Of a DNA stretch of 64,000 nt, positions 24,300 to 38,174 are shown piece by piece; within the stretch, counting starts at the first letter, position 1, and each line of letters opens with the position of its first letter. This stretch comes from Spirochaetia bacterium. GTDB lineage: Bacteria > Spirochaetota > Spirochaetia > CADAEX01. The notes beneath the pieces were generated by a model that had not been told where the DNA came from, ran no database searches, and saw nothing but the letters and a program-made list of their open reading frames with translations. The DNA is taken from the NCBI GenBank assembly GCA_963662265.2, contig CAXXHA010000013.1:1-64000 (forward strand). The letters run 5' to 3'. Position numbers and translations under genes: made by a program.

Positions 24300-26096
24300 T
24301 CAGGATAGCTTGAATTTATTGATTTCGGTATCCAGTTTTTTGATAAAAACATCATTGTTTTTTGTCTGTTCAATCAATGTGTTCATTGATTCTTTGATAT
24401 TTACTGTAAAGTTGTTTATCTTTGCTATTGCTTCCTCTGTCATTTTTTTATTTGACTTGAGATCCTGAAGAATAGATCCTATGCTCATACTTCGTTTATT
24501 TGTATCAAGAGCACTGTTTTCTATTGATTTTGTTATGCTGGACAGGTTTGAAGAGGATTCTGTTATTTCTCCTGTACCTGAAGACATTTCATTCATGTTG
24601 GCAGCTATTTCTGAAAAAGCATTGATAAAGCGCTGCATTTTGCTGTTTATATTTTCAAATGAATCCCTGCTGTCGTTTGAAGCAGTTTCAGCTGTTTGTA
24701 TTTTATCTGTAATTATTGTCAGAAGAGAGCTGATCTTGTTTGAGTTGTCTGAAGTTGATTCGGCAAGTTTCCTGATTTCATCAGCAACAACTGCAAATCC
24801 TTTTCCATATTCACCTGCATGGGCAGCTTCTATCGATGCATTCATTGCAAGAAGGTTTGTCTGGCTTGCAATACTGTTGATTATTTCAAGGATTTCATAC
24901 ATATCAGATGCATGCTTGGATATATCTGAAACAATATTCCTTGTCTGCTCAATTCGTTCTCCCCCTTCTTCTGCTGTTTCGAGAAGGTTCTTGCTTTCCT
25001 GCTGGTTTTTGGAAGCAATTGAAGAAACATTGTTTATTGTTGCGGAAAGCTCTTCAAGTGCAGCTGAAGTCTGGCTTACTGCTGTTGCCTGGTCTTCAAT
25101 CTGGTTTGTAAGGCTGCTTATGTTTGTGCTTATTACTTCGGATGATTCAGAAGTGGTCTCTATTGAATTTGACAGCCCTTTAAACTGCACTTCCACAGTT
25201 GAAAGCAGATTAGTTATATTCAGGATATCATCAGATGTTCTGTTTGCAGAATCAATGACTCTTTCACTTATTCTTACAGTGTTTCCTGAAGCATCTTTAA
25301 CTTCAAAAATCAGTTTTTTTAAGTTATCAATAGCTCTCTTGAAGTTGGAAGAGAATTTTCCGATTTCATCATCTTTTTTATAATCTGGTACATATGTAAG
25401 GTCTCCTTCCGCTATTTTTGAAGTTGAGTTGATAATCATCTTTACTGGTTTTGAAAGTGAATTCGCAATTCTAATAGAAAATACTATTGAGAACAGGATA
25501 CTTAATATAATAAGCAGTATTGTTATGTTCTGGGATATTGCCTGAATTCTATGAGCTTGTTGAATTCTGGTATCAAGTTCTTTTTTTATTTTAACAACGA
25601 TCGAGTCTATCTCCTCTTGAAGTCTTTGAGATAAGGGCGCAAAGCTCATTTTTTTATATGTGTCTCCATAACTTTTACCTCTATGGATATACGCGCCTGC
25701 CATTGTAGTCCCTTCATCAAAAAAACTTTGGTACATGGGAGTCGATGCGTAAAAATAATCTGTAATATAATCAAAATCAGTTCCGACCAGGCTGTTTGCA
25801 ACTTCAAGCATTTTTTCTAAAGTATCTGTTGCAGTTTGTTCTGCTTCACCAAGCTGTGCATAATCCTTGGAAAGTGATGCACTGTAATAGTGAAGTTCTA
25901 TTGATTTGATATTTTTCTGTATATCAAGGAGGTTGATTGTTACAGGAACAAGTTGTCTGGTAATGTAGTTTATAGTTTTTATATTCTTTTTGCTTGAATA
26001 AAGCATAAAAGATAATGATATCATAAATATAAGCAACAGAACTGAACAATTTAGAAGTATTTTACTTTTAAAGGTTTTGAAGCCATGTCTTTTCAT
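24300..26096 (-). CDS. Methyl-accepting chemotaxis protein
   Basis: TM-sensor-TM-HAMP plus [38 protein letters not shown]. Confidence 0.95.
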
Positions 26097-27360
26097 TTTA
26101 ATTAACCCTCTTGTATAAAGTAGATATATTGTACCTTATCTTTTTGAAATTGGCACGCAACTTCTTTTATTGTTGTGCCGTTTGAGTACCTGAATGGATA
26201 AAAAAAACTCCGGGTCTTCCGGAGTTTTTAAGATTATAGTTATTGCTTATGTAATTCTTTATGAAAGCTTGAATTTATTGATTTCGGTATCCAGCTTTTT
26301 AATGAAATCATCATTGTTTTTTGTCTGTTCGATCAATGTGTTCATTGATTCTTTGATATTTACTGTAAAGTTGTTTATCTTTGCTATTGCTTCCTCTGTC
26401 ATTTTTTCATTTGACTTGAGATCCTGAAGAATAGATCCTATGCTCATACTTCGTTTATTTGTATCAAGAGCACTGTTTTCTATTGATTTTGTTATGCTGG
26501 ACAGGTTTGAAGAGGATTCTGTTATTTCTCCTGTACCTGAAGACATTTCATTCATGTTGGCAGCTATTTCTGAAAAAGCATTGATAAAGCGCTGCATTTT
26601 GCTGTTTATATTTTCAAATGAATCCCTGCTGTCGTTTGAAGCAGTTTCAGCTGTTTGTATTTTATCTGTAATTATTGTCAGAAGAGAGCTGATCTTGTTT
26701 GAGTTGTCTGAAGTTGATTCGGCAAGTTTCCTGATTTCATCAGCAACAACTGCAAATCCTTTTCCATATTCACCTGCATGGGCAGCTTCTATCGATGCAT
26801 TCATTGCAAGAAGGTTTGTCTGGCTTGCAATACTGTTGATTATTTCAAGGATTTCATACATATCAGATGCATGCTTGGATATATCTGAAACAATATTCCT
26901 TGTCTGCTCAATTCGTTCTCCCCCTTCTTCTGCTGTTTCGAGAAGGTTCTTGCTTTCCTGCTGGTTTTTGGAAGCAATTGAAGAAACATTGTTTATTGTT
27001 GCGGAAAGCTCTTCAAGTGCAGCTGAAGTCTGGCTTACTGCTGTTGCCTGGTCTTCAATCTGGTTTGTAAGGCTGCTTATGTTTGTGCTTATTACTTCGG
27101 ATGATTCAGAAGTGGTCTCTATTGAATTTGACAGCCCTTTAAACTGCACTTCCACAGTTGAAAGCAGATTAGTTATATTCAGGATATCATCAGATGTTCT
27201 GTTTGCAGAATCAATGACTCTTTCACTTATTCTTACAGTGTTTCCTGAAGCATCTTTAACTTCAAAAATCAGTTTTTTTAAGTTATCAATAGCTCTCTTG
27301 AAGTTGGAAGAGAATTTTCCGATTTCATCATCTTTTTTATAATCTGGTACATATGTGAGG
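24305..27360. repeat. ~1.1 kb direct repeat (24305-25400 / 26264-27360), offset 1959
   Basis: Identical 300-aa antisense ORF translations at 24481 and 26440; core 24450-25397 appears identical to 26409-27356. Confidence 0.9.
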
Positions 27361-28055
27361 TCCCCGTCAGCAATTTTGGATGTTGATTTGATAATAAGTT
27401 CAATCGGTTTTGACAGAGAATTTGCTATTCTGAATGATATAAATACGGCAATTGCTATACTGAGGATAACAAGTATGAGAATAATTTTCTGAGATATGCT
27501 CTGAAGTTTTTCCGCCTTCCTTATCTGTAGGTTCAGGTTTTCCTTGAGTTTCATTGCTATTGTATCGATTTCTCCCTGAAGCCTGATTGAAAGAGGGGCA
27601 AACGCCATTCTCCTGTAGCTGTTGCCGTGATAATCGCCTTTTTCAATATAGGCCATAGCCATTTTCTTGCCTTCGTTGTAGTAGGTGTCATATACCTCTT
27701 CCGAAGAGGTGAAATAGGCTGAAATATCTGAGAATGCAGAATTCTGAAGAGTATTACCTACTGTTTTCATTTTTTCCTTTAAAGTATCAAAAACATTTTT
27801 TGAAGTTTCCAGCCATATCTCTTCGTGTGAAAGCGAAGCGCTGTAAAAAAGCAGTTCAATTTCTTTAATATCTTTCTGAATATCAAGAAGGTCGATTGTA
27901 ACAGGGACAAGTTTGTTTGTTATGTAATTAATTGTGTTGAGATTTTTCCTGCTTGAATAAATCATAAAAGATAATGAAACAAGAAAAATAATCAGGAGAA
28001 TAGTGCATCCTCCGAGAATTTTGCTTTTAAAAGTTTTAACCTGAAATATCCTCAT
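26259..28055 (-). CDS. Methyl-accepting chemotaxis protein (tandem paralog)
   Basis: Same signalling domain as 24300..26096, divergent periplasmic sensor. Confidence 0.95.
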
Positions 28056-28405: not shown

Positions 28406-29746
28406 CTAGCGTTCGGAAATTGGTACATATTTCCTTTTTTCGGAAACATTCTTATATGCCGGTCTTATAATTCTTCCACCGCTTACAATTTCTTCAAGCC
28501 TGTGAGCTGCCCATCCGGCCATTCTTGCGATTGCGAAAATTGGAGTATAGAGTGCTGTCGGTATATTAAGCATTCTGTAGACAAAGCCTGAATAGAAATC
28601 TACATTGGCGGATATGACTTTTTCAAATCCCCTTTCACTGAACATTGCATCGGGAGTGAGTTTCTCAACACTCATATAAAGGTTGAATTCTTTCTCCATT
28701 CCCTTTGCTGCAGCCAGTTCACGTGCTTTCTGCTTGAGAAGCACAGCTCTGGGATCAGATTTTGTGTAAATTGCATGTCCGTAACCGTAAATAAGGCCGG
28801 CCTTGTCAAATGCCTCTTTTCTGATGATTTTTCCAAGGTAGGATTTGATTTCATCTTCATCATTCCAGTCACCCACATTTTCCATTATATTATCCATCAT
28901 TCTGAGTGCTTTTTTATTTGCACCCCCGTGTCTTGGCCCTTTCATTGAACAGAGAGCTGCTGCAATAGCTGCATATGTGTCAGTATTTGTGGATGTTACT
29001 ACATGGTTTGTGAATGTGGAGTTGTTACCTCCCCCGTGTTCGGCGTGAAGAATAAGCGCAAGGTCGAGAACCTGTTTTTCCAGTTCTGTGAAATGACTGT
29101 CAGGCCTTATCAGGTGAAGCAGGTTTCCGGCAGTTCCAATTCCCTGTTTCGGTCTGTGTATATAAAGGCTTTTTCCGTCATGGTAGTGTGATTTTGCCTG
29201 ATATCCATAGGCTGCCATGGTGGGAAGTCTTGCAATCAGTTCAAGACACTGCCTTGTTACATTTTCAACACTGATGTCATCTGCCTGGCTGTCATAGGAA
29301 TATGATACAAGAACACTTCTTGCCAGTTTATTCATAATATCCCTGCTGGGAGCTCTCATTATCATATCTTCGGCAAAGCCGTCAGGAAGATCTCTGAAGG
29401 AATCAAGAAGCATATTGAACTCTTCCAGTTCGGAAGCTGTAGGAAATTCTCCGAAAATAAGGAAATAAGCAGTTTCTTCAAAGCCGTTTCTGTTTTCTGA
29501 AATTATGTTGGTTACAATTTCATTTATATTTACTCCTCTGTAAAGAAGCCTTCCCTCGTCAGGAACCCGTTCCCCTTCATCAAAAATATACCCGTGTACA
29601 TCCCCTATTTCTGTGAGACCTACAAGAACTCCTGATTCATCCTTGTTTCTTAAGCCTCTTTTTACATTATATTTTGTGTAAAGAGCTGGATCTATTTTAT
29701 TTCTCTGAGCAATTTTTTCATCAAGTTTTTTTATAAAATCTGTCAT
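28406..29746 (-). CDS. gltA: Citrate synthase (citrate/2-methylcitrate synthase family)
   Basis: HAEHGGGNNST, GPRHGGAN, GYGHAIY, DPRA, ANVDFYSG: full catalytic triad. Confidence 0.93.
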   Translation of the reverse strand: MTDFIKKLDEKIAQRNKIDPALYTKYNVKRGLRNKDESGVLVGLTEIGDVHGYIFDEGERVPDEGRLLYRGVNINEIVTNIISENRNGFEETAYFLIFGEFPTASELEEFNMLLDSFRDLPDGFAEDMIMRAPSRDIMNKLARSVLVSYSYDSQADDISVENVTRQCLELIARLPTMAAYGYQAKSHYHDGKSLYIHRPKQGIGTAGNLLHLIRPDSHFTELEKQVLDLALILHAEHGGGNNSTFTNHVVTSTNTDTYAAIAAALCSMKGPRHGGANKKALRMMDNIMENVGDWNDEDEIKSYLGKIIRKEAFDKAGLIYGYGHAIYTKSDPRAVLLKQKARELAAAKGMEKEFNLYMSVEKLTPDAMFSERGFEKVISANVDFYSGFVYRMLNIPTALYTPIFAIARMAGWAAHRLEEIVSGGRIIRPAYKNVSEKRKYVPISER

Positions 29747-29789
29747 AAAGGAAGCCTCCTGAGAATTCCTAACTGTAGATTAAGATTTC

Positions 29790-29806
29790 CATAAATTATG
29801 GTTATG
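29790..29806. promoter_or_regulatory. Putative LysR-type operator upstream of gltA
   Basis: CATAA-N7-TTATG. Confidence 0.4.
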
Positions 29807-30188
29807 TTTTAATTGTACAATACTAATATATAATTCTTAATCAGTACAGTTGTTTTCGACATTTGCTCATTTTCAGTTTTATGTTGAAAAGAGGCTGTTT
29901 TGTAAAAATTATTCTATTTATAAAAGGATATTATTTTCAGAAGAATATTGGGTGATTATTCCTGTCATATCAGCTGTTTGAAATGATTTTTGCCATGTTT
30001 GGCTGGCTGTTTCATTAAGCTCCACTTATATTTTCATTGAAATAAAAAAAATAGTTTTTTTAATGATCTTTTTGCTGAAAATAATGCAATTATCTGCCTG
30101 TTTATCAGTATTCTTTATATTATTACTTTCAGTTCATGTATGTATTGAAATGTTTAGAAAATGTTAAAAAACAGGAAAATAAGGGGTT

Positions 30189-30258
30189 TTTAATAACCGA
30201 GGGTTATTAAAGATATGAATATAAATAAGTTGACTTTATGTATGAATTAATCTAAGTT
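30189..30258 (+). promoter_or_regulatory. LysR-type operator plus sigma70 promoter of CS-like operon
   Basis: Perfect palindrome TTTAATAACC-GAG-GGTTATTAAA (30189-30211) then TTGACT-N17-TAAGTT (30230-30258). Confidence 0.6.
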
Positions 30259-30353
30259 TTGGTTGACTTTAATAAAGCTGATTATTACCTGAATATCGTA
30301 GCTTGAAAAAACATTTTGATAAAAGGGTATTAACTTTTATAGGAGGAGAAAGA

Positions 30354-31250
30354 ATGGATCGTAAACCATTGATCCAGCGAAAGACAATGATCTCTTACAA
30401 AACTGAAGAAAAAACAGTTTTAAGAGGTTATAATGTAAGCGATCTTGCAGAAGCTGGTTACACATTTGCTGACGGATTATTTATCCTTTACCAGGGTAGA
30501 ATCCCTTCAGAAAACGAAAGAAGAATGCTCGATTATGAGCTCGGAGAATTCCTCGAGCACTCAATGTCACCTTCAGCTGTTTCTTCAATAGCTGTAATTA
30601 ACGGACATCCAATGCTTCCAGCTGCTGTTGCTGCTTCAATCATGACTTTTGGTGGAGCTCACGGACCAGGAGCACAGCACGGATACATGCTTAAAAAATA
30701 TCTCGACAGAGCTGCTGACCAGGGTAAAACTCCTGAAGAAGTTGCTGTTGAGTGTGTTAACGAATACATGGACTCAGGCAGAGCTGTTATGGGTATGGGC
30801 CAGCCACAGCACCTTGACGGTGACCCTCGAGCGGAACCAACTCACCTTACACAGGAAGCACTCGGAGTAGACGGTGTATACCTCAAATTCCAGAGAGCTC
30901 TTGAAGAAAAATTCTATGCAAGAAGAGCAGAAGAAGGAAGAAGCTATGTTGCTGTAAACATGGTTGGTGCTGGTAACACAGCTCTTGCTGATATCGGATT
31001 TGCTCCTAACGCTGCATGGGCTCTTGGCTGTACAGTACGAGGATACAGCTGTGCTGCACACGCTCTCTACACTCTTAAGAAAGGTAGAGCATGGGCTGCT
31101 TCAAGAAATGAGCCGATGGTTCAGATGCTTGACCTTGCTATGATCAAGTATGTTGGTCCGGAAGACAGGGCTGTTCCTTCACAGGATGAAAGAGCAGAAT
31201 ATGCTAAAAAACAGTTAGAATCAGGAGAATTTAGAAGATGGCTGATATAA
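30354..31250 (+). CDS. Citrate synthase-fold (citryl-CoA lyase-like) protein A
   Basis: LRGYNVSDL, EHSMSPSA, FGGAHGPG, GMGQPQH..DPRA, VNMVGA; ATG 30354 after AGGAGG. Confidence 0.78.
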   Translation: MDRKPLIQRKTMISYKTEEKTVLRGYNVSDLAEAGYTFADGLFILYQGRIPSENERRMLDYELGEFLEHSMSPSAVSSIAVINGHPMLPAAVAASIMTFGGAHGPGAQHGYMLKKYLDRAADQGKTPEEVAVECVNEYMDSGRAVMGMGQPQHLDGDPRAEPTHLTQEALGVDGVYLKFQRALEEKFYARRAEEGRSYVAVNMVGAGNTALADIGFAPNAAWALGCTVRGYSCAAHALYTLKKGRAWAASRNEPMVQMLDLAMIKYVGPEDRAVPSQDERAEYAKKQLESGEFRRWLI

Positions 31251-32308
31251 AACACTCTGATCCAAGAATCGCACAGATGAAATTTGTCAAAAGGAAAGTT
31301 GAAGGTACTCTCAACGATCCTAGACTTAGATATGATTATTCAAACAGAGAAGTTGGAACACTTCCACCAGATGACAGAGAAGGATTCAAATGGGTTTCTG
31401 AAGTAGCATACAAAAACATCCACAGAATCGTTTCCAGAGGTTATGACACAACAGAAGTTGTAGAAGCTGGATATGGTATGACTGATGTTCTTTTTATCGA
31501 CTACCAGGCTCGAATTCCTTTCGTAGAAGAAAGAGAAGTTCTTGACTACCTTCTTGTTGTAATGCTTGATGATGGTCTTTCAAATCCTGCAGTTCTTGCA
31601 AGAGCTATTGCAAGAGGTAAGAACTACATTACACAGTCATGTGGTGGTTCAGTACTTGCTTTTGGTCACGCATATGCTTCTTTCGATGCAACAGGTAAAA
31701 TGCTTAACAAATACCTTGCTAAAGTAGAAGAAGAAGGTATGAGCGTTGCTGATGCTGCTGCTCTTCTTGTAAAAGAAAATGCAAAAGAAGATCACCTCGG
31801 TATTTCAGACAGATACCTTAAAGATCCTACAGCAAGAAAAATGCTTGACTTTGTTGAGAAAAAACTTCCTGCAGTAAAAGAAATCAAATATGTTCCTTTC
31901 ATGAAAGAAGTTGTAAAAGCTGCTAAAGCACAGCTTGGTAATGTTGATGTTGATATTATCGGTGCTATGACCGCTGCAATGATGGATCTTGATTTCTCAC
32001 CTGAAGCTGCTTGGTGTATCATGTCAGTAACAAGAGCTTTCGGAGCTTCTGCTCACGCTATCGAAGAACTCGAAAGAGAAAGCTTTGACTACCTTGGTTC
32101 ACAGCTCACTCCAAAAGAATGGTATGACGGACCAGCTGACAGAGAAGTACCATCACTTGACACAAGAAACGGTTTTGCTGGTGCACAGGCTACAACTGCT
32201 AAAGAATGGCAGGATGCCTGGAAGGAAAAAGAGAAACTTTTCGGATCAGGATATGCAATTAAATTTTATATCGAAGATCCTAGAAAAGCTGCAACTTCTA
32301 GAAAATAA
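31238..32308 (+). CDS. Citrate synthase-fold (citryl-CoA lyase-like) protein B, degenerate
   Basis: SRGYDTTEV, DDGLSNPA, FGHAY, KDP, DIIGAM, TRAFGASAHAIEE; overlaps gene A by 13 nt. Confidence 0.72.
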   Translation: MADIKHSDPRIAQMKFVKRKVEGTLNDPRLRYDYSNREVGTLPPDDREGFKWVSEVAYKNIHRIVSRGYDTTEVVEAGYGMTDVLFIDYQARIPFVEEREVLDYLLVVMLDDGLSNPAVLARAIARGKNYITQSCGGSVLAFGHAYASFDATGKMLNKYLAKVEEEGMSVADAAALLVKENAKEDHLGISDRYLKDPTARKMLDFVEKKLPAVKEIKYVPFMKEVVKAAKAQLGNVDVDIIGAMTAAMMDLDFSPEAAWCIMSVTRAFGASAHAIEELERESFDYLGSQLTPKEWYDGPADREVPSLDTRNGFAGAQATTAKEWQDAWKEKEKLFGSGYAIKFYIEDPRKAATSRK

Positions 32309-32323
32309 TAATTTTTTTATTAT

Positions 32324-32349
32324 AAGTCCCCTGTTCTCAGGGGACTTTT
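32324..32349 (+). terminator. Hairpin/terminator after CS-like pair
   Basis: AAGTCCCCTG-TTCT-CAGGGGACTTTT. Confidence 0.65.
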
Positions 32350-32519
32350 CTTCTCGATTCAGAGGATGGACTTTTTCCTTATGAATGCTTTTAAAATAAA
32401 AAAATTGTTTTATGAGATAATGCAGGAACCGGATAATTCCTCAGAAAAGAAAGAAAAACCAATAATAAAACCCTGATTATCTTTATCAGGGTTGAGGTGC
32501 GTTAAGGAGACTTGAAAAT

Positions 32520-33914
32520 ATGGCTGAAAATGTAAAAGATCTGTACGACAGAGCCAGAAAAGCATTCGAAGTAATCGAATTCTGGCCACAGGATAGAGTA
32601 GATGAAATGGTAGCTGCTGTTGCATGGAAACTCCAGACAAAAGCTGTTGCTGAAGATGTTGCTAAAATTGCTCATGAAGAATCAGGAATGGGTGTTTATG
32701 AGCACAAAGTAAGAAAACACGGCAAGATTAAAGGTATCATGTTTGAAATGAAAGGCAAGAAAACTTGCGGTCTTATCAAAGATGATAAAGAAAGAGGAAT
32801 CAAGACTTATGCAAAACCAATGGGTGTTGTTGCAAATGTTGTTCCTTGTACTAACCCTACAATTACAACAGCTTTTATCGGTCTTTCTCTTCTTAAAACA
32901 AGAAATGCGATGATCTGTTCACCGCACCCAAGAACAAAGCAGTCAACTGCTAAAACAGTTAAATACGGAAGAGAGGCTCTCAAAGCTATCGGTGCTCCTG
33001 AAGACCTTTTCCTCTGCATTGAAGAACCTTCAAATGAAAAAACTGTAGAACTCATGTCAATTTCTGACTATGCTGTTGCTACTGGCGGTAAAGCTCTTAT
33101 TAAAGTAGTACACGCTGCAGGTACTCCAAGTGTAACTGTAGGTGCTGGTAATGTTAGAGCTATCATCGATCCTTCAGCTGACCTTGTGAAAGCTGCTACA
33201 TGCGTAATGCAGTCAAAAACTTTTGACAATGCAACTTCATGTTCATCAGAAAACGCTGTTTCACTCCACGAATCAATCTATGATGCTGGTATCGAAGAGC
33301 TCAAGAAAGTTGGCGGATACATGTGTACTTCTGAAGAGAGAGAAAAACTCAGAGCTGTTATGTGGCCTGACGGACATACTCTCAACAGAGACATTGTTGC
33401 TAAACCTGCTCTTACAATTGCAGAAATGGCTGGTATTGCAGTACCTGAAAACACAAAATTCATCATGGTTGAAGGTCAGAAAATCGGACCTGAAGACATG
33501 TTTTCAAACGAAAAACTTTCACTCGTACTCACAGTATGGAAATGGAATGATTTCGACACAGAAATGAAAACTCTCCTTGAAAACCTCAAGTTCTCAGGAA
33601 TCGGACACTCATGTGCTCTCCACTCAGCTAAACCTGAACAGTGGGAAAAACTTGCTGAGTTCATTCCTACAGGTAGAGTTAACATCAACATGCCTAACAC
33701 AATCGTAAACAGCGGTAGTTTCTTCGCTGGTCACGAGTACACAACAACAATCGGTTGCGGTACATGGACTGGAAACAGCCACAGTGACAACATCAACTAC
33801 AGACACTTCATGAACACAACTAGAATGGCTGTTCCAATAGAAGAGTATGTACCAACTGATGAAGAAGTTTACGGTGACAACCTTGCTAAATGCAAAGAAC
33901 TTTTCGGTGAATAA
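32520..33914 (+). CDS. CoA-acylating aldehyde dehydrogenase (SauS/SucD-like)
   Basis: PCTNP, VGAGNV, SKTFDNATSCSSEN (catalytic Cys), EKLS, GHS, GCGTWTGNSHSDN. Confidence 0.88.
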   Translation: MAENVKDLYDRARKAFEVIEFWPQDRVDEMVAAVAWKLQTKAVAEDVAKIAHEESGMGVYEHKVRKHGKIKGIMFEMKGKKTCGLIKDDKERGIKTYAKPMGVVANVVPCTNPTITTAFIGLSLLKTRNAMICSPHPRTKQSTAKTVKYGREALKAIGAPEDLFLCIEEPSNEKTVELMSISDYAVATGGKALIKVVHAAGTPSVTVGAGNVRAIIDPSADLVKAATCVMQSKTFDNATSCSSENAVSLHESIYDAGIEELKKVGGYMCTSEEREKLRAVMWPDGHTLNRDIVAKPALTIAEMAGIAVPENTKFIMVEGQKIGPEDMFSNEKLSLVLTVWKWNDFDTEMKTLLENLKFSGIGHSCALHSAKPEQWEKLAEFIPTGRVNINMPNTIVNSGSFFAGHEYTTTIGCGTWTGNSHSDNINYRHFMNTTRMAVPIEEYVPTDEEVYGDNLAKCKELFGE

Positions 33915-33937
33915 TATTTACTGATAAATATTTTATT

Positions 33938-33970
33938 ATACCCCGGTTATATTTACCGGGGTATTTTTTT
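33938..33970 (+). terminator. Intrinsic terminator
   Basis: ATACCCCGGT...ACCGGGGTATTTTTTT. Confidence 0.75.
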
Positions 33971-34081
33971 ACTTACTTTATGTATGACACCTGTATATAC
34001 GGAACAGGTTGTACTGATCTGGCCATGAATATGATAATGTCTCATATCTTGGAATTGAATATAAAATAACGGGATAAAATA

Positions 34082-34786
34082 ATGGAAATAAAAGCTGTAA
34101 TATTTGATTTTGTTCAGACACTGGGCACTGCTGCAGAAGGGTATAAAGCTGCTGAAAAGAATTCACAGGAAAAATTATATGAAAAGCTGAAGATTGATGA
34201 CTGGGACAGTTATAAAGATATATACAGGAAAGAGCGAAAGGAGCATTTTTTGAAATCTGATTTTTCAAGAAAAAATGTATGGCTTAAGATATGTTCTATT
34301 TATAAGCTGGAGCCGGATAATGAGTTTCTTGATAATCTTGAAAATGAATACTGGGAAATTGTGCAGAAAAGCATGAAACTGTTTCCTGAAACACTGAAAG
34401 TTCTGGCTGAACTGAAAAAGAAATATAAATTGGGGATGATTACTAATTCGCAGAAAGACGGAAGCACAAGGGCTCTTGATTCTGAGGATTATAATGAAAT
34501 GTCAGAATATTTTGATCATATTATAATTTCTGCTGAAGGCGATATTCCTGCAAAACCTGATCCTGTTCCGTTTAATATGATGCTTGAAAAAATGAAAATA
34601 AATGCTGACGAGGCAGTTTTTGTCGGTGATGACCTGAGGGTTGATATCGAAGGAAGCATAAATGCAGGGATGAAAGCTGTGTGGCTGAAGCATTATTCTG
34701 TAAAAAGAAACTGGCCTGAGTGCAGTTTTGATATTCCTGTGATTGATAACCTTGAAAAATTGTATGATATCGATAAATTAATGTAA
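34082..34786 (+). CDS. HAD-superfamily hydrolase
   Basis: IFDFVQTL motif I, ITNS, KPDP, VGDDLRVDIEG. Confidence 0.88.
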   Translation: MEIKAVIFDFVQTLGTAAEGYKAAEKNSQEKLYEKLKIDDWDSYKDIYRKERKEHFLKSDFSRKNVWLKICSIYKLEPDNEFLDNLENEYWEIVQKSMKLFPETLKVLAELKKKYKLGMITNSQKDGSTRALDSEDYNEMSEYFDHIIISAEGDIPAKPDPVPFNMMLEKMKINADEAVFVGDDLRVDIEGSINAGMKAVWLKHYSVKRNWPECSFDIPVIDNLEKLYDIDKLM

Positions 34787-34832
34787 AAAGACTTGACTAG
34801 TGGTAAAGTAATCATTAACATGAATATTGGTT

Positions 34833-35738
34833 ATGAATCTTTACCATTTAAAGACTTTTTATTATACAGCTAAGTATAAGAGCCTGACTAAGGCTGCTGA
34901 CGTCCTCTGTATCACACAGCCTGCTGTTACAAAGCAGATAAAGCAGCTGCAGAGTCATTATGAAATAAAATTTCTCGACATTATCGGTAAGAAAGTTGTT
35001 CTTACCGATGCGGGGAAGCATCTGTACACAATTGCCGATAAGATATTTGATATGGAAAGCCAGGCAGAGGAAAGTATAAGAGATTTTCAGAATTTTACTA
35101 AGGGTAAAATCAATATTCTTTCCTGTGAAAGTTTCGGAGCTTATTATATTCCATATATTATCAGATATTATAATATCACAAATCCTGATATAAACATTTC
35201 AATGCAGATAAGCAGGAATGATGATATTATTGAAAATACTGCTGAACTTAACAATGATATCGGATTTATCTCGAAACCAATACAGAATCCCAAGATATCT
35301 GTGCACGAAATTCTCGAAGATGATATTGTTTTTATTGCAAGTCCGAAATATGAACTCAGCCGTCGTGATACATTGATTCCTGAAGATCTCAAAGGCTGTA
35401 ATATGATTGTTCATGAGCAGGGATCTGTTACACGAAAAGTTGCCGACAACTTGATTAGAAAAAATAATATTGACCTTAATATCAGTTATGAAATATCAAA
35501 CAGCGAAGCAATTAAAAGGCTTGTTCAGCAGGATCTTGGTGTTGCCTTTATTTCAAAGAACATGGTATCTGAAGAGGTTAAAAGCGGTAAGCTGGTAGCA
35601 GTTCCGGTTGAGGAAAAAGGGTTTAAAAGAAAATACTATATGATACATCACAGCGAAAAGTATTTTTCAAAACCGCTCAAAGATCTTTTTGACCTGATTC
35701 TTCAATGGTCAAAGATATACCCGACACCAATGTTTTAA
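34833..35738 (+). CDS. LysR family transcriptional regulator (CysL-like)
   Basis: HTH SLTKAADVLCITQPAVTKQIKQL; HEQGSVTR, SNSEAIKRLV. Confidence 0.92.
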   Translation: MNLYHLKTFYYTAKYKSLTKAADVLCITQPAVTKQIKQLQSHYEIKFLDIIGKKVVLTDAGKHLYTIADKIFDMESQAEESIRDFQNFTKGKINILSCESFGAYYIPYIIRYYNITNPDINISMQISRNDDIIENTAELNNDIGFISKPIQNPKISVHEILEDDIVFIASPKYELSRRDTLIPEDLKGCNMIVHEQGSVTRKVADNLIRKNNIDLNISYEISNSEAIKRLVQQDLGVAFISKNMVSEEVKSGKLVAVPVEEKGFKRKYYMIHHSEKYFSKPLKDLFDLILQWSKIYPTPMF

Positions 35739-35838
35739 AAACACGATGTTTTCCCCCAAAGGGGACATGTGGTCTGCCGGACAGCTATTGATAGCGGTTG
35801 GGCTGATGAAAAAACAGGACTTTTTTTCATCATGGGGA
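35738..35838 (+). repeat. Intergenic GGA-loop hairpin element (dispersed repeat family)
   Basis: AAAAC-ACGAT-GTTTT, TCCCC..GGGGAC, GATGAAAAAA-CAGGAC-TTTTTTTCATC; resembles 60781-60870. Confidence 0.55.
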
Positions 35839-35954
35839 AAGGGTTTAACTGATAAAAAAGAGTAAATTACAAAGATTTTTATAAACCTTTCTGAAGATGA
35901 TCTTCAGAAAGGTTATTTTTTGCACAGCGGAAAATAAACATTGGTTCAGGATAA

Positions 35955-36458
35955 TCAGATAATTCCTCTTTTTTTAAGAATTGAAAATTCCAGTTCAAAA
36001 CTGTCTGTAAAGTAGTTTTTTCCTATAAGAGATTCAATTTCCTCGATAGAAAAAAATCTGCCGTCGACAACTTCATCATTATCTATTTTAAAAGGGCCGT
36101 TATAAATTGTTGTATAAAGCATGGCAACTTCAGTTTCTGTAGTGTTTTCATGTATATATTTGAAAAGGAAATCAAGACTGGCAGGTTTTATTCCAAGTTC
36201 TTCTTCCGCTTCTCTTAAAACCGCTTCTTCGGGAATTTCTCCTGCTCCCACATGTCCCCCGACAGCAGTATCCCAGAGTCCCGGGTAGAGATCTTTTGAA
36301 TCAGATCTTTTCTGAAGAAAAATATCACCTCTGTCATTGAAAATCTCGATATGAACAACCATCTGAATAAGGGATTTATCTTCATGACATTTTGACCTCG
36401 GAGCAACTCCTGCAGGATTCCCGTCAAGATCGACTAATTGCAGCATTTCATCTTTCAT
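35955..36458 (-). CDS. NUDIX hydrolase (IDI-like/YfcD)
   Basis: LQKRS..KDLYPGLWD, GGHVGAGE...AVLREAEEELG. Confidence 0.88.
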   Translation of the reverse strand: MKDEMLQLVDLDGNPAGVAPRSKCHEDKSLIQMVVHIEIFNDRGDIFLQKRSDSKDLYPGLWDTAVGGHVGAGEIPEEAVLREAEEELGIKPASLDFLFKYIHENTTETEVAMLYTTIYNGPFKIDNDEVVDGRFFSIEEIESLIGKNYFTDSFELEFSILKKRGII

Positions 36459-36582
36459 AAATATATTTTAGCAAAAATAAACAGAAGTTCATATCAAAAT
36501 AAAAAAAGCTGCCGACCGGTGAAGGAAGACAGCTTTGAAAATATTCCAAACTGGAATGTTGGATTTGAATAAATATTTAAAC

Positions 36583-37526
36583 CTAACTGATTCCGAGAAG
36601 TTTTATAGCTCCGATATACATTGCCATTGAAACCATCATTGCAATAAGAGGTGTTGTAATCCAACCGATAACGATATTGGTAAGAGTTTTAAGGTTGATT
36701 GTTTTTACACCTTTTACAAATCCGATACCAAGTACACCACCTACAATAGCTTGTGATGAAGATACAGGAACACCAACAATAGCATATATATTGAGAATAA
36801 TAGACATAGAAAGTACAGCTACAAATGCACTGAACGGGTCAAGCTTTACTAGCTTTTCACCTACAGTCTGCATAACTCTTTTACTGTATGTTATAGCACC
36901 GAGACAGATACTTAATGATCCGATAATAAGTGCCTGGGGAATGTTAAGAAGACCTGTTTCGATATAAATACCTGTTACATTTGCAACATTGTTCGCACCG
37001 AGTGAATATGCTCCGTAACACCCTACAACTATGAGAACCAATCCTGAGTACAGAGTCCTGCTGAAAAATATTAAGTTTCAGTTTTGCAAGAAGCTTACTT
37101 AAGAGAGGGTAAAGTATCAGAGTTGCAATAACACATCCAACCGGAGTTCCATACCCAGCATGCAAATACTTTAGGTAGTTTTGAAAGGTCAACATGACCT
37201 ATGATAATACCAATACCGATAATTGCTCCAACCATAGCCTGTGATGTTGATACAGGAAGGTTTAAATATGTCATTACAGTTACTGTTAATGCAGCAGCAA
37301 GTGCAGTTATGAAAGCTGTATTAAGGTTCTGCTCAACGAGACCGCTCAAAGTATGCATACCTGCAGCGCCCTGGAGTATTGAACCAAGAATAATCATAAT
37401 ACACAGCCAGAAAAGAGCAGTCTTGAACTTGACCATTCTTGAGAATACTGCTGTTCCAAATATATTTGCAGAGTCATTGGCACCCAATGACCAACCCATA
37501 AATATCCCGCTTAATAGCCTGAACAT
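36583..37526 (-). pseudogene. PiT-family inorganic phosphate transporter, split by two +1 frameshifts (may be sequencing error)
   Basis: GANDSAN, PVSTSQ, GANNVAN, PVSSSQ spread over three frames; single extra bases near 37151 and 37037. Confidence 0.8.
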
Positions 37527-37529
37527 TTA

Positions 37530-38174
37530 TTAAATCTTCCTTTTGATGATTGCGAGTTCAATTCTGTCAGATACATCTTCAGCAAGGTCTGAGATGTTAC
37601 CGATAGCAATTATTACTTCCTTAAGCTGCATTTTTTCTGCAAGATCCATATCTGTGCTGTAGATATCTCTGATAAGTGCTCTTTCAGCAGCATCTGATTC
37701 TCTTTCTTTATCACAAACATCTTCACATTTGTTTAAAAGATCTTCTTCTTTGAAAAGACAGAAAGCAGCTTCTTTTGTGAGGTTGTATGCATCAATGTTT
37801 ACATTAATAAGATCGATAAATCTTGCTTTGTAGTTTTCAGGAACTTTGATGTTCTGAAAAAAGATAATGTTACAAACAGACTGGAATGTGTTTGGTAATG
37901 TGTCGAAAGATTCGAGAAGACCGAGGATATCACCTCTTGATTCAGGTACAAGCGCTTTTTTGTAGAGCTCAAGAATTACAGATCTTCTTTCTGTGTCAGC
38001 TTCATGCTCTGCTGCGTGTACATCTTCCACTGCGTCTGCAAGTGATGCGTCAGCATCTTTGTTGATAAGGTCTGCGACAGTTTTTTTGAAAACGTCTCTT
38101 GTTTTATCAGTTTTTTCAAAATAGGTCTGAATTTTTGAAAAAATTGATTCCTGTTTTTTCCATAATTTTGCCAT
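37530..38174 (-). CDS. DUF47 / PhoU-like PiT accessory protein
   Basis: EHEADTERR, RGDILGL, ERESD, ISDLAEDVSDRI; directly upstream of PiT. Confidence 0.88.
   Translation of the reverse strand: MAKLWKKQESIFSKIQTYFEKTDKTRDVFKKTVADLINKDADASLADAVEDVHAAEHEADTERRSVILELYKKALVPESRGDILGLLESFDTLPNTFQSVCNIIFFQNIKVPENYKARFIDLINVNIDAYNLTKEAAFCLFKEEDLLNKCEDVCDKERESDAAERALIRDIYSTDMDLAEKMQLKEVIIAIGNISDLAEDVSDRIELAIIKRKI

Follow-up and report, generated by a model that had tools for sequence, protein, structure and literature searches.

2-Aminoethylphosphonate (AEP) is the most abundant natural phosphonate. It is converted into phosphonoacetaldehyde (PAA) by PhnW, and the same aldehyde is made by PbfA from (R)-1-hydroxy-2-aminoethylphosphonate. 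To our knowledge, only two sinks for PAA have been described, namely PhnX and the PhnY-PhnA pair. Hydrolases acting on beta-carbonyl phosphonates break the carbon-phosphorus (C-P) bond by expelling a stabilised carbanion, which is an enamine in PhnX and, for PhnA and phosphonopyruvate hydrolase alike, an enolate bound to metal. The active site of the citrate synthase fold, in turn, is specialised to stabilise the enolate of acetyl-coenzyme A (acetyl-CoA), with an Asp residue moving the alpha-proton. In the cycles of malonate decarboxylase and citrate lyase (CitF/CitE), the acid is loaded by a CoA-transferase from an acetyl thioester, which the cleavage then regenerates. Here we analysed a stretch of 64,000 nucleotides from a Spirochaetia bacterium (assembly GCA_963662265.2, contig CAXXHA010000013.1, positions 1 to 64,000 of the forward strand; hereafter the window), in which two citrate-synthase-fold genes, A and B, are followed by genes for a CoA-acylating aldehyde dehydrogenase (ALDH), a HAD hydrolase and a LysR-family regulator. 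These five genes very probably form a catabolic module for PAA, and phosphonoacetyl-CoA is likely to be its intermediate. The complete route, which we favour with moderate confidence and which is predicted from sequence and gene context, would lead from PAA to phosphonoacetyl-CoA and then, by cleavage of the C-P bond in an A/B heteromer, to acetyl-CoA and phosphate.

Gene A (30354–31250, plus strand) encodes a protein of 298 amino acids with a citryl-CoA-lyase (CCL) fold; its open reading frame spans 30303–31250, and the true start is the ATG at 30354, which is preceded by the ribosome-binding site GGAGGAG. Its paralog B (31238–32308, plus strand, 356 amino acids) overlaps A by 13 nt, and the genes for the ALDH (32520–33914, 464 amino acids), the HAD hydrolase of subfamily IA (34082–34786, 234 amino acids) and the LysR-family regulator (34827–35738) follow on the same strand. 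The minus strand carries a citrate synthase gene at 28406–29746, whose product scores 693.9 bits with NF010635 (cut-off 426). A preliminary description of the window had noticed two overlapping genes of the citrate synthase/CCL fold divergent from a canonical gltA, with a HAD hydrolase and a LysR gene after the ALDH, and this arrangement is borne out here.

Phosphonate context of the A/B loci

A pattern scan that took one genome per species, nearly all of them metagenome-assembled genomes (MAGs), kept 80 A/B loci out of 233 relatives. The loci occur in Spirochaetia, Opitutia/Puniceicoccaceae, Anaerolineales/Chloroflexota, Planctomycetes, Sedimentisphaerales, Desulfobacterales, Syntrophales and others. 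B lies directly after A in all 75 loci with at least 1.1 kb of downstream sequence, and the ALDH gene is found downstream of the pair in 60 of the 62 scorable loci, being split in one of the 60 and missing from L071 and L085. The linkage to the ALDH, on which the preliminary description had made its proposal depend, is conserved across several phyla. Outside the phylum of the window, the module genes are nearly contiguous, with 6–60 nt between B and the ALDH gene. The HAD gene is present in 41 of 55 scorable loci and the LysR gene in 21 of 80. A citrate synthase neighbour occurs in 17 of the 80 loci, exclusively in records of Spirochaetia or Spirochaetes, and is a lineage-specific neighbour; the idea that A/B acts as a partner of the neighbouring citrate synthase was dropped for this reason. 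In one Desulfobacterales genome (G086, locus L085), A/B stands with PhnX-like, HpnZ and phn_DUF6 genes without an ALDH gene, while PhnW and the HAD ortholog are found 2.6 Mb away (C1:4735058–4739519) with a 2.7-kb gap between those two; the module can therefore split over two loci.

Neighbouring open reading frames were grouped by single linkage and one representative per cluster was scanned against NCBIfam, so that not every neighbour was annotated. Phosphonate families recurred among the annotated clusters, with PhnW-AepZ in 24 loci (411.7 bits against a cut-off of 360.8), a Zn-dependent alcohol dehydrogenase (Zn-ADH) of the HpnZ_proposed family in 15 (358 against 328.1), PbfA in 9 (717.2 against 525), and PhnU2 (713.7 against 593.25) and PhnS2 (502.7 against 392.75) in 4 loci each. 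Further clusters comprised phn_DUF6 (11 loci, below cut-off), PhnA or PhnA-like proteins (7 loci) and a PhnX-like HAD protein (5 loci, below cut-off); regulators of the GntR/UTRA and RpiR families and transporters of the MFS and TRAP types were seen as well. Of the 63 loci without a citrate synthase neighbour, 44 had one or more phosphonate marker clusters, and a stricter tblastn count found a marker in 40 of all 80 loci. PhnW, PbfA and the PbfG/HpnZ-like ADH are all producers of PAA. According to the 2026 PbfG paper (PMC13576164), this pf00107 Zn-dehydrogenase converts 2-hydroxyethylphosphonate (HEP) into PAA, and its gene is normally clustered with phnX or phnY-phnA. The Zn-ADH of the A/B loci is probably of the PbfG kind, as judged by family rather than by direct sequence comparison. 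Transporters and catabolic regulators dominate these neighbourhoods, and no phosphoenolpyruvate (PEP) mutase was found among the annotated neighbour clusters; a biosynthetic role was dropped on these grounds.

The same picture emerged from whole genomes, for which 49 A/B genomes, or 50 with the window's own, were counted; the MAGs are incomplete and related genomes are not independent of each other. PhnW scored over its cut-off in 33 and PbfA in 29 A/B genomes, and either one did so in 36 of 49. PhnX over cut-off was found in none of the 49 genomes and PhnY in none of the 50, and PhnA exceeded its cut-off in 2 of 50. Weaker matches consisted of a PhnX-like protein at 105–118 bits in 12 A/B genomes and a PhnA-like protein at 213–229 bits in 5 genomes beyond the two with PhnA. 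The HAD ortholog was present in 42 of the 49, sometimes unlinked from A/B.

The window's genome (90.6% complete) encodes PhnW (409.2 bits against 360.8), accompanied by a TAXI-TRAP binding protein and a GntR/UTRA regulator, and PbfA (682.2 bits against 525), accompanied by a TAXI binding protein and a LysR protein that is 46% identical to the LysR of the window, both on contigs other than that of the window. Its best PhnX match reached 48.5 bits against 220, and PhnA was not found at this level of completeness. The matches of the window LysR include TIGR03339, the model for LysR regulators of AEP catabolism, below cut-off (173.7 bits against 341.1). Among 40 relatives, strong matches to A were confined to the family of the window (17 of 19 genomes, against none of the 21 from other families), and PhnW occurred in 16 of the 19 and in two others; the sole PhnX over cut-off adjoins PhnW in a genome without A/B. 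In A/B genomes, the module would stand in for the known PAA sinks PhnX and PhnY plus PhnA. As side observations, the window's genome holds a second PbfA-like gene (G000:C35:235247–236590), which shares 49% identity with the PbfA representative. In G024, a relative that lacks A/B, the PhnW match lies inside a 624-amino-acid open frame (C1:1699955–1701016), which suggests a fusion protein, possibly of the biosynthetic cytidylyltransferase-aminotransferase type.

A search of 1.84 billion representatives with A returned 545 proteins at E ≤ 0.001, a number that fell to 23 at E ≤ 1e-30; A therefore represents a tight family. Its nearest full-length relatives are 30–42% identical, read HHPQH where A has GQPQH, also lack the catalytic Asp and have a C-terminal extension in common with A. 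A metagenome scan with these relatives yielded 52 loci, and in a quick tree A, B and the two sister clades A' and A'' formed one clade apart from other CCL-like proteins (SH-aLRT 99). Clade A' (23 loci) has a single CCL-like gene, about 30% identical to A, which in 13 of the 15 loci with at least 1 kb of downstream sequence is followed by the same acylating ALDH family (52–60% identical; 493.4 bits with the SauS model against 600). Its clusters contain PhnW (487.3 bits against 400.8), PbfA (711.5 bits), phn_DUF6, HpnZ-like and PhnA-like genes. Clade A'' (15 loci), likewise a single gene and about 30% identical to A, has a two-subunit family-I CoA-transferase on its 5' side in 8 of the 10 loci with at least 1 kb of upstream sequence and a non-acylating ALDH (PF00171, 518–528 bits) on its 3' side in 6 of 10 scorable loci; one of its loci, L126, carries PhnS2T2U2, PhnW (501.5 bits) and PbfA (733.8 bits). 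Genes for the CoA-transferase are likewise located 5' of A' in L116, L117 and L119, and 5' of A in the A/B-type locus L043. The acylating ALDH on the one hand and an ALDH plus a CoA-transferase on the other are two routes from an aldehyde to an acyl-CoA, and the CCL-like protein is their constant partner. No other candidate for C-P cleavage was found among the annotated genes of the A'' loci L125 and L126, and no HAD ortholog in any sister-clade locus (tblastn, E ≤ 0.01). We propose the CCL-like enzyme as the C-P cleaver because it is constant beside acyl-CoA makers, in PAA-producing clusters without known C-P hydrolases.

Several further genes recur in these clusters. A PhnA-like subfamily of about 364 amino acids (213–229 bits against the PhnA cut-off of 407.55) is found in 12 loci beside the HAD or ALDH gene, in A/B-type as well as A'-type clusters (for example L108:8385–9479, and L110, L026, L034, L048, L052, L053, L063, L064 and L074). 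A homolog of malonyl-CoA decarboxylase (MCD; PF05292, 344 bits) directly follows the SauS-like ALDH in three closely related loci (L102:9245–10651, L103 and L104:9633–11078) with PhnW-PbfA-CCL-like clusters, with phn_DUF6 and an Amidohydro_3 protein coming after it, and hints at a malonyl-CoA-like intermediate; a beta-alanine or malonate-semialdehyde route was dropped, given that the homolog is limited to these three loci. A pyridoxal-phosphate (PLP) enzyme resembling glutamate-1-semialdehyde aminomutase (347.7 bits, under the hemL cut-off) is encoded between PbfA and the CCL-like gene in L102–L105 (L104:5663–6949), L033 and L067, and may convert a further aminophosphonate.

Proteins and genes of the module

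Both A and B match the citrate synthase family PF00285 (45.6 bits for A and 30.2 for B, where the cut-off is 27), and the closest solved chain for both is the citryl-CoA lyase 6hxp (E 1.2e-18 and 2.4e-11, respectively). With the NCBIfam citryl-CoA-lyase models (best model NF004869; PRK06224 models), they reach 117 and 92.4 bits, both under the cut-off of 212. The translation of A contains FLEHSM, GGAHGPG, GMGQPQH and VNMVGAG, and that of B contains MLDDGLS, FGHAYASF, LGISDRY and VDVDIIGA. In HMMER alignments to 6hxp, N-M-V of A and D-I-I of B face N-V-D; a MAFFT alignment with the citrate synthase of the window places the NVD register two positions off, and our residue calls follow the HMMER alignments to the closer CCL. 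In the citrate synthase numbering, which we take to be that of the pig enzyme, A keeps His274 (H69), His238 (H103), Arg329 (R159) and Arg401 (R229), and has Gln150, Val204 and Glu253 in place of His320, Asp375 and Arg421. B keeps Arg401 and has Asp, Tyr, Thr, Ser and Ile at the positions of His274, His238, Arg329, His320 and Asp375, with no reliable alignment at Arg421. All 18 aligned orthologs of A have Val or Ile at position 204, and Q150 (within GMGQ, where B reads LGIS) and His153 are invariant. The preliminary description had noted EH and GAHG as kept in A, with GMGQ in place of GFGH and NMV in place of NVD, and had deduced that A has lost the catalytic Asp; from DD, GHAY, GISD and DII it had deduced that the triad of B is largely lost. 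All these motifs are present, and its conclusion that neither protein should be an ordinary citrate synthase stands. Both proteins lack the Asp, score under the NCBIfam cut-offs and, contrary to the outcome that would have counted against its proposal, fall in no characterised citryl-CoA-lyase clade. The residue pattern would fit C-P cleavage rather than C-H or C-C chemistry.

Between phyla, A sequences are 68–97% identical, and their mean column identity in a set of 18 diverse sequences is 81%. B, which is extended at the N-terminus and has a conserved tail at the C-terminus, is less conserved at 62%. Because A and B are sisters in a quick maximum-likelihood (ML) tree (SH-aLRT 91), B is taken to be a degenerate duplicate of A. 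No fused (longer) form of A was found, a null result that counts for little. A modelled alone with AlphaFold2 had a mean pLDDT of 50.9 (18 near-identical sequences). The modelled A+B complex reached an ipSAE of 0.80, compared with 0.00 for the best of 3 controls; 58 of 80 solved complexes and 2 of 110 mismatched pairs attain this mark. The model runs had at least 88% of their contacts in common, with a pLDDT of at least 85 for the partner, and about 310 residue pairs touch, including the motif residues 67–71 and 152–159 of A. The model supports binding between A and B and, together with the constant order of the two genes, speaks for the heteromer suggested at the outset. Within such a heterodimer, A is likely to be the catalytic subunit and B a non-catalytic partner.

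The ALDH carries the motifs SKTFDNATSCSSEN, GCGTWTGNSHSDN and TRMAVPIEEYVP, which had led to its designation as a SauS-like acylating enzyme. SauS is indeed the best NCBIfam model (NF047625, 470.1 bits), ahead of AdhE (391) and EutE-type enzymes (325), yet the score remains under the SauS cut-off of 600. The best solved relative is SucD (8cei, E 9.1e-89), and full-length alignments to 8cei and to AdhE N-domains are in agreement with a CoA-acylating architecture; the Cys of DNATSCSSEN in the ALDH faces that of DNGIICSSEQ in 8cei, which we assume to be the catalytic residue. Of the earlier designation, the likeness to SauS therefore remains and the identity with SauS does not, and by these scores and alignments the enzyme is placed in a sister family of SauS and SucD. 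The window's genome encodes a second acylating ALDH that is 43% identical to that of the window (G000:C35:65972–67336).

In the HAD hydrolase, motif I reads FDF[V/G/D]QT across 32 sequences, with an invariant nucleophile D9 and Val, Gly or Asp at the Asp+2 position, which is absent from the invariant columns. Asp+2 is the general acid/base of ordinary HAD phosphatases, and phosphonatase lacks it too; its lack of conservation would be unusual for a phosphomonoesterase. The protein scored 20.5 bits with the PhnX model TIGR01422 (match at 34322–34687; cut-off 220), and its predicted structure (pLDDT 91.2) retrieved only generic subfamily-IA HADs from the PDB with Foldseek (YfnB, NANP, PH0459 and haloacid dehalogenases), which point to no particular substrate. 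It is confined to A/B-type loci, where His320 has become Gln, and there it genuinely belongs to the module. An activated phosphoryl group may be passed to this protein or hydrolysed by it, or the protein may be the actual hydrolase; an accessory role is favoured, given that its codon bias is low and that the sister clades lack it.

Codon usage was ranked among the 1890 genomic open reading frames of at least 250 amino acids, by the proportion of Phe, Asn, Tyr and His codons that end in C. A, B and the ALDH ranked at percentiles 97.5, 95.4 and 99.8, within the top 5% of the genome, in agreement with the usage typical of highly expressed genes that had been ascribed to the first three genes; HAD, LysR and citrate synthase fell at 1.2, 8.4 and 78. 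Short contigs that match A, the beginning of B and the ALDH at 90–100% were present in four metatranscriptome runs from four studies, one of which also had a contig on LysR. These runs were picked with a query running from A through the ALDH, so that the lack of coverage of citrate synthase and HAD carries no meaning, and the contigs (from RNA libraries in Logan, with neither strand nor level and with DNA carry-over possible) are at most a hint of transcription.

A consensus scan for promoters and terminators found terminator-like hairpins after B (32324–32347, plus strand, with a T-rich tail), after the ALDH (33938–33964, plus strand, with a T run) and after LysR. A further hairpin with a 9-bp stem (32469–32493) lies directly 5' of the ALDH ribosome-binding site and matched no Rfam family; together with that at 32324–32347, it points to an ALDH gene that is controlled separately or by attenuation. 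An Rfam scan of 29000–36500 gave nothing close to a gathering score.

Beyond LysR, a PHO4-type phosphate transporter and a PhoU_div/DUF47 protein are encoded on the minus strand (36583–38174), possibly as a phosphate-handling pair. The transporter gene (36583–37526) is spread over frames -3, -1 and -2 by two frameshifts, which reflect either a pseudogene or an assembly error; the intact 313-amino-acid ortholog in L011 is 87–96% identical over the pieces found in the window. The pair recurs near A/B in several phyla (clusters c14 with 7 loci and c17 with 6) and was seen in the window and in L011, L012, L014, L057, L065, L076, L084, L086 and L089; it may handle phosphate released by the pathway, which would fit phosphate release. 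On the far side of the citrate synthase gene, two tandem 598-amino-acid paralogs of methyl-accepting chemotaxis proteins (HAMP and MCPsignal domains) occupy 24300–26096 and 26259–28055 on the minus strand.

Proposed chemistry and rival explanations

In the route that we favour, the SauS/SucD-like acylating ALDH would convert PAA, CoA and NAD+ into phosphonoacetyl-CoA, and the A/B heterodimer would bind this thioester in the citryl-CoA-lyase-type site of A. There, H69 would polarise the thioester carbonyl, while H103, R159 and R229, the cationic residues of the old oxaloacetate pocket, could hold the phosphonate. The C-P bond would be cut with the acetyl-CoA enolate as the leaving group, giving acetyl-CoA and phosphate as products. 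B would complete the dimer and probably part of the site of A. Where a CoA-transferase is present, as in clade A'', the acetyl-CoA formed would reload the next phosphonoacetate. It is improbable that phosphoryl transfer takes the place of plain hydrolysis, with the phosphoryl group passing from phosphonoacetyl-CoA to His153 of A or to the Asp nucleophile of the HAD protein and on to an acceptor. If it did, part of the large free energy of the beta-carbonyl C-P bond would be conserved, and anaerobes would have a phosphonate-fed substrate-level phosphorylation beyond the ATP obtained from acetyl-CoA.

The HAD protein could itself be the C-P hydrolase, acting either on PAA, with the ALDH turning the resulting acetaldehyde into acetyl-CoA, or on phosphonoacetyl-CoA, with A/B binding and polarising the thioester or being otherwise engaged. 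Its frequency in A/B genomes and loci (42 of 49 and 41 of 55), the non-conserved general acid/base of its motif I and the Gln of A, found where the HAD is present and replaced by His (HHPQH) in the sister clades that lack it, all speak for such a role. However, A' and A'' keep the CCL-like gene and the acyl-CoA-forming enzymes with a HAD in no locus, a CoA-transferase with a non-acylating ALDH would make no sense for an acetaldehyde route, and the ALDH is nearest to SauS and SucD, which act on anionic substrates, rather than to EutE or AdhE. Given also that the HAD gene has the lowest codon bias of the cluster, that its product hardly matches the phosphonatase model and that its structural neighbours are generic, we regard this explanation as unlikely. 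A different division of labour, in which A/B acts as a thioesterase or transferase that yields phosphonoacetate for a PhnA-type hydrolase, would agree with the 12 examined loci that carry PhnA or PhnA-like genes, often right 3' of HAD, and with the hydrolysis of citryl-CoA by citrate synthases. Yet PhnA and PhnA-like proteins are limited to two and five of the 50 A/B genomes, with PhnA not found in that of the window, and the CoA-transferase gene directly 5' of the CCL-like gene implies that the thioester is made for this protein, so that undoing it would be futile; we give this possibility little weight.

The preliminary description had listed several acyl-CoA substrates, among which gene context favours phosphonoacetyl-CoA. 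The sulfo-substrate of that list would imply a sulfonate module, in which a SauS-type ALDH converts sulfoacetaldehyde into sulfoacetyl-CoA and A/B releases acetyl-CoA and sulfite. The chemistry would be analogous and SauS is the best model for the ALDH of the window and of the sister loci, but both scores stay under the cut-off, all annotated recurrent neighbour families that indicate a substrate are specific for phosphonates, with several exceeding equivalog cut-offs, and no taurine, isethionate or sulfite gene was found among the annotated clusters, which do not cover every neighbour. A sulfonate module is therefore very unlikely. As for an ordinary citryl-CoA lyase, or an accessory of the adjacent gltA-type citrate synthase, the fold homology and the divergent orientation towards a true citrate synthase in the window are its attractions. 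It is already contradicted by the loss of Asp and His320 in A and of nearly the whole residue set in B, by model scores well below the citryl-CoA-lyase cut-off and by a citrate synthase neighbour that is restricted to Spirochaetia and Spirochaetes, and we consider that there is hardly any chance of it.

Several points weigh against C-P cleavage by A/B in a PAA module. The residue expected to protonate the enolate is gone from A, and loss of this Asp is common elsewhere in the CCL-like superfamily and hence not unique to A/B. Phosphonoacetyl-CoA as an observed metabolite was not found in the published work searched. The locus in the window contains no phosphonate gene, so that the link is drawn from other loci and from genome content; moreover, 19 of the 63 loci without a citrate synthase neighbour have no marker, many of their contigs being short, and 13 of the 49 A/B genomes have neither PhnW nor PbfA over cut-off. 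Since the MAGs are incomplete, unfound PhnX, PhnY and PhnA do not prove absence, and the PhnA-like protein, although below cut-off, could cleave the C-P bond in its 12 loci. The HAD protein, in 42 of 49 genomes and without a conserved Asp+2, could be the C-P hydrolase or an obligatory partner. The hairpins part A-B, ALDH and HAD-LysR, and the module may thus consist of several transcription units in the window. Finally, the pass of the A+B model may reflect likeness to solved homodimers of citrate synthase and CCL.

Comparison with known systems

Our literature search (full text, with few subscription journals and no supplements) found no description of a CoA-dependent PAA route, of catabolic phosphonoacetyl-CoA or of CCL-like proteins in phosphonate clusters, and a prior description is possible. 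Phosphonoacetyl-CoA appears as a predicted, undetected product of BKACE in the available part of one preprint (10.64898/2026.01.15.699783). A term search of a 2023 review on phosphonate degradation (PMC10574752) gave neither 'citrate synthase' nor 'acylating', and 'CoA' in one reference only; CoA also goes unmentioned in the available portions of the PbfF (PMC12366243) and PbfG (PMC13576164) papers. On balance, the window appears to hold a member of a widespread, undescribed CoA-dependent branch of PAA catabolism. If so, this would be a third branch, with phosphonoacetyl-CoA as a new metabolite and with a new mechanistic class of C-P-cleaving enzyme, in which a citrate-synthase-fold site expels an acetyl-CoA enolate. 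It would be the route of many uncultured anaerobes of gut, rumen, sediments and digesters, with users among Spirochaetia, Desulfobacterales, Syntrophales, Anaerolineales, Planctomycetes and Opitutia, and since acetyl-CoA would be made directly, AEP could feed carbon and energy besides phosphorus. A tightly conserved family now labelled 'citrate synthase', 'citryl-CoA lyase' or 'hypothetical' would gain a function. Genome-based surveys of the phosphorus cycle score A/B carriers as unable to complete AEP degradation.

Among the described enzymes, citryl-CoA lyase (Ccl of Hydrogenobacter thermophilus, 6hxp) and the CCL module of ATP-citrate lyase have the same fold, are dimeric and provide a site for an acetyl-CoA enolate leaving group. 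In contrast to Ccl, A/B has Val or Ile in place of Asp and, in A, Gln in place of His320; it consists of two paralogs in obligate partnership, B being degenerate, with a C-terminal extension and a clade of its own (SH-aLRT 99). Its context consists of phosphonate genes; no SCS-like family was seen among the recurrent neighbour clusters annotated, and citryl-CoA synthetase (CcsAB) was not searched for in the genome. The ALDH is, like SauS and SucD (8cei), predicted to be CoA-acylating on small anionic aldehydes, but it stands in a phosphonate context rather than a sulfonate or succinate one and remains below the SauS cut-off.

With the PhnW-PhnX and PhnW-PhnY-PhnA pathways, the proposed route would have in common the upstream enzymes (PhnW, PbfA and PbfG/HpnZ-like), the transporters (PhnS2T2U2 and phn_DUF6) and the regulators, and both the hydrolytic AEP pathways and this route would lead via PAA to a C2 unit and phosphate. 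They would differ in how the C-P bond is activated, which is through an iminium in PhnX and a Zn-bound carboxylate in PhnA and would be through a CoA thioester here, and in the product, which would be acetyl-CoA instead of acetaldehyde or acetate. Clade A'', with its CoA-transferase, would follow the logic of malonate decarboxylase and citrate lyase, phosphonoacetyl-CoA being the phosphono analog of malonyl-CoA. Unlike in those cycles, phosphate would leave instead of CO2 or oxaloacetate, and the cleaving enzyme would have the citrate synthase fold rather than that of MCD, MdcD/E or CitE.

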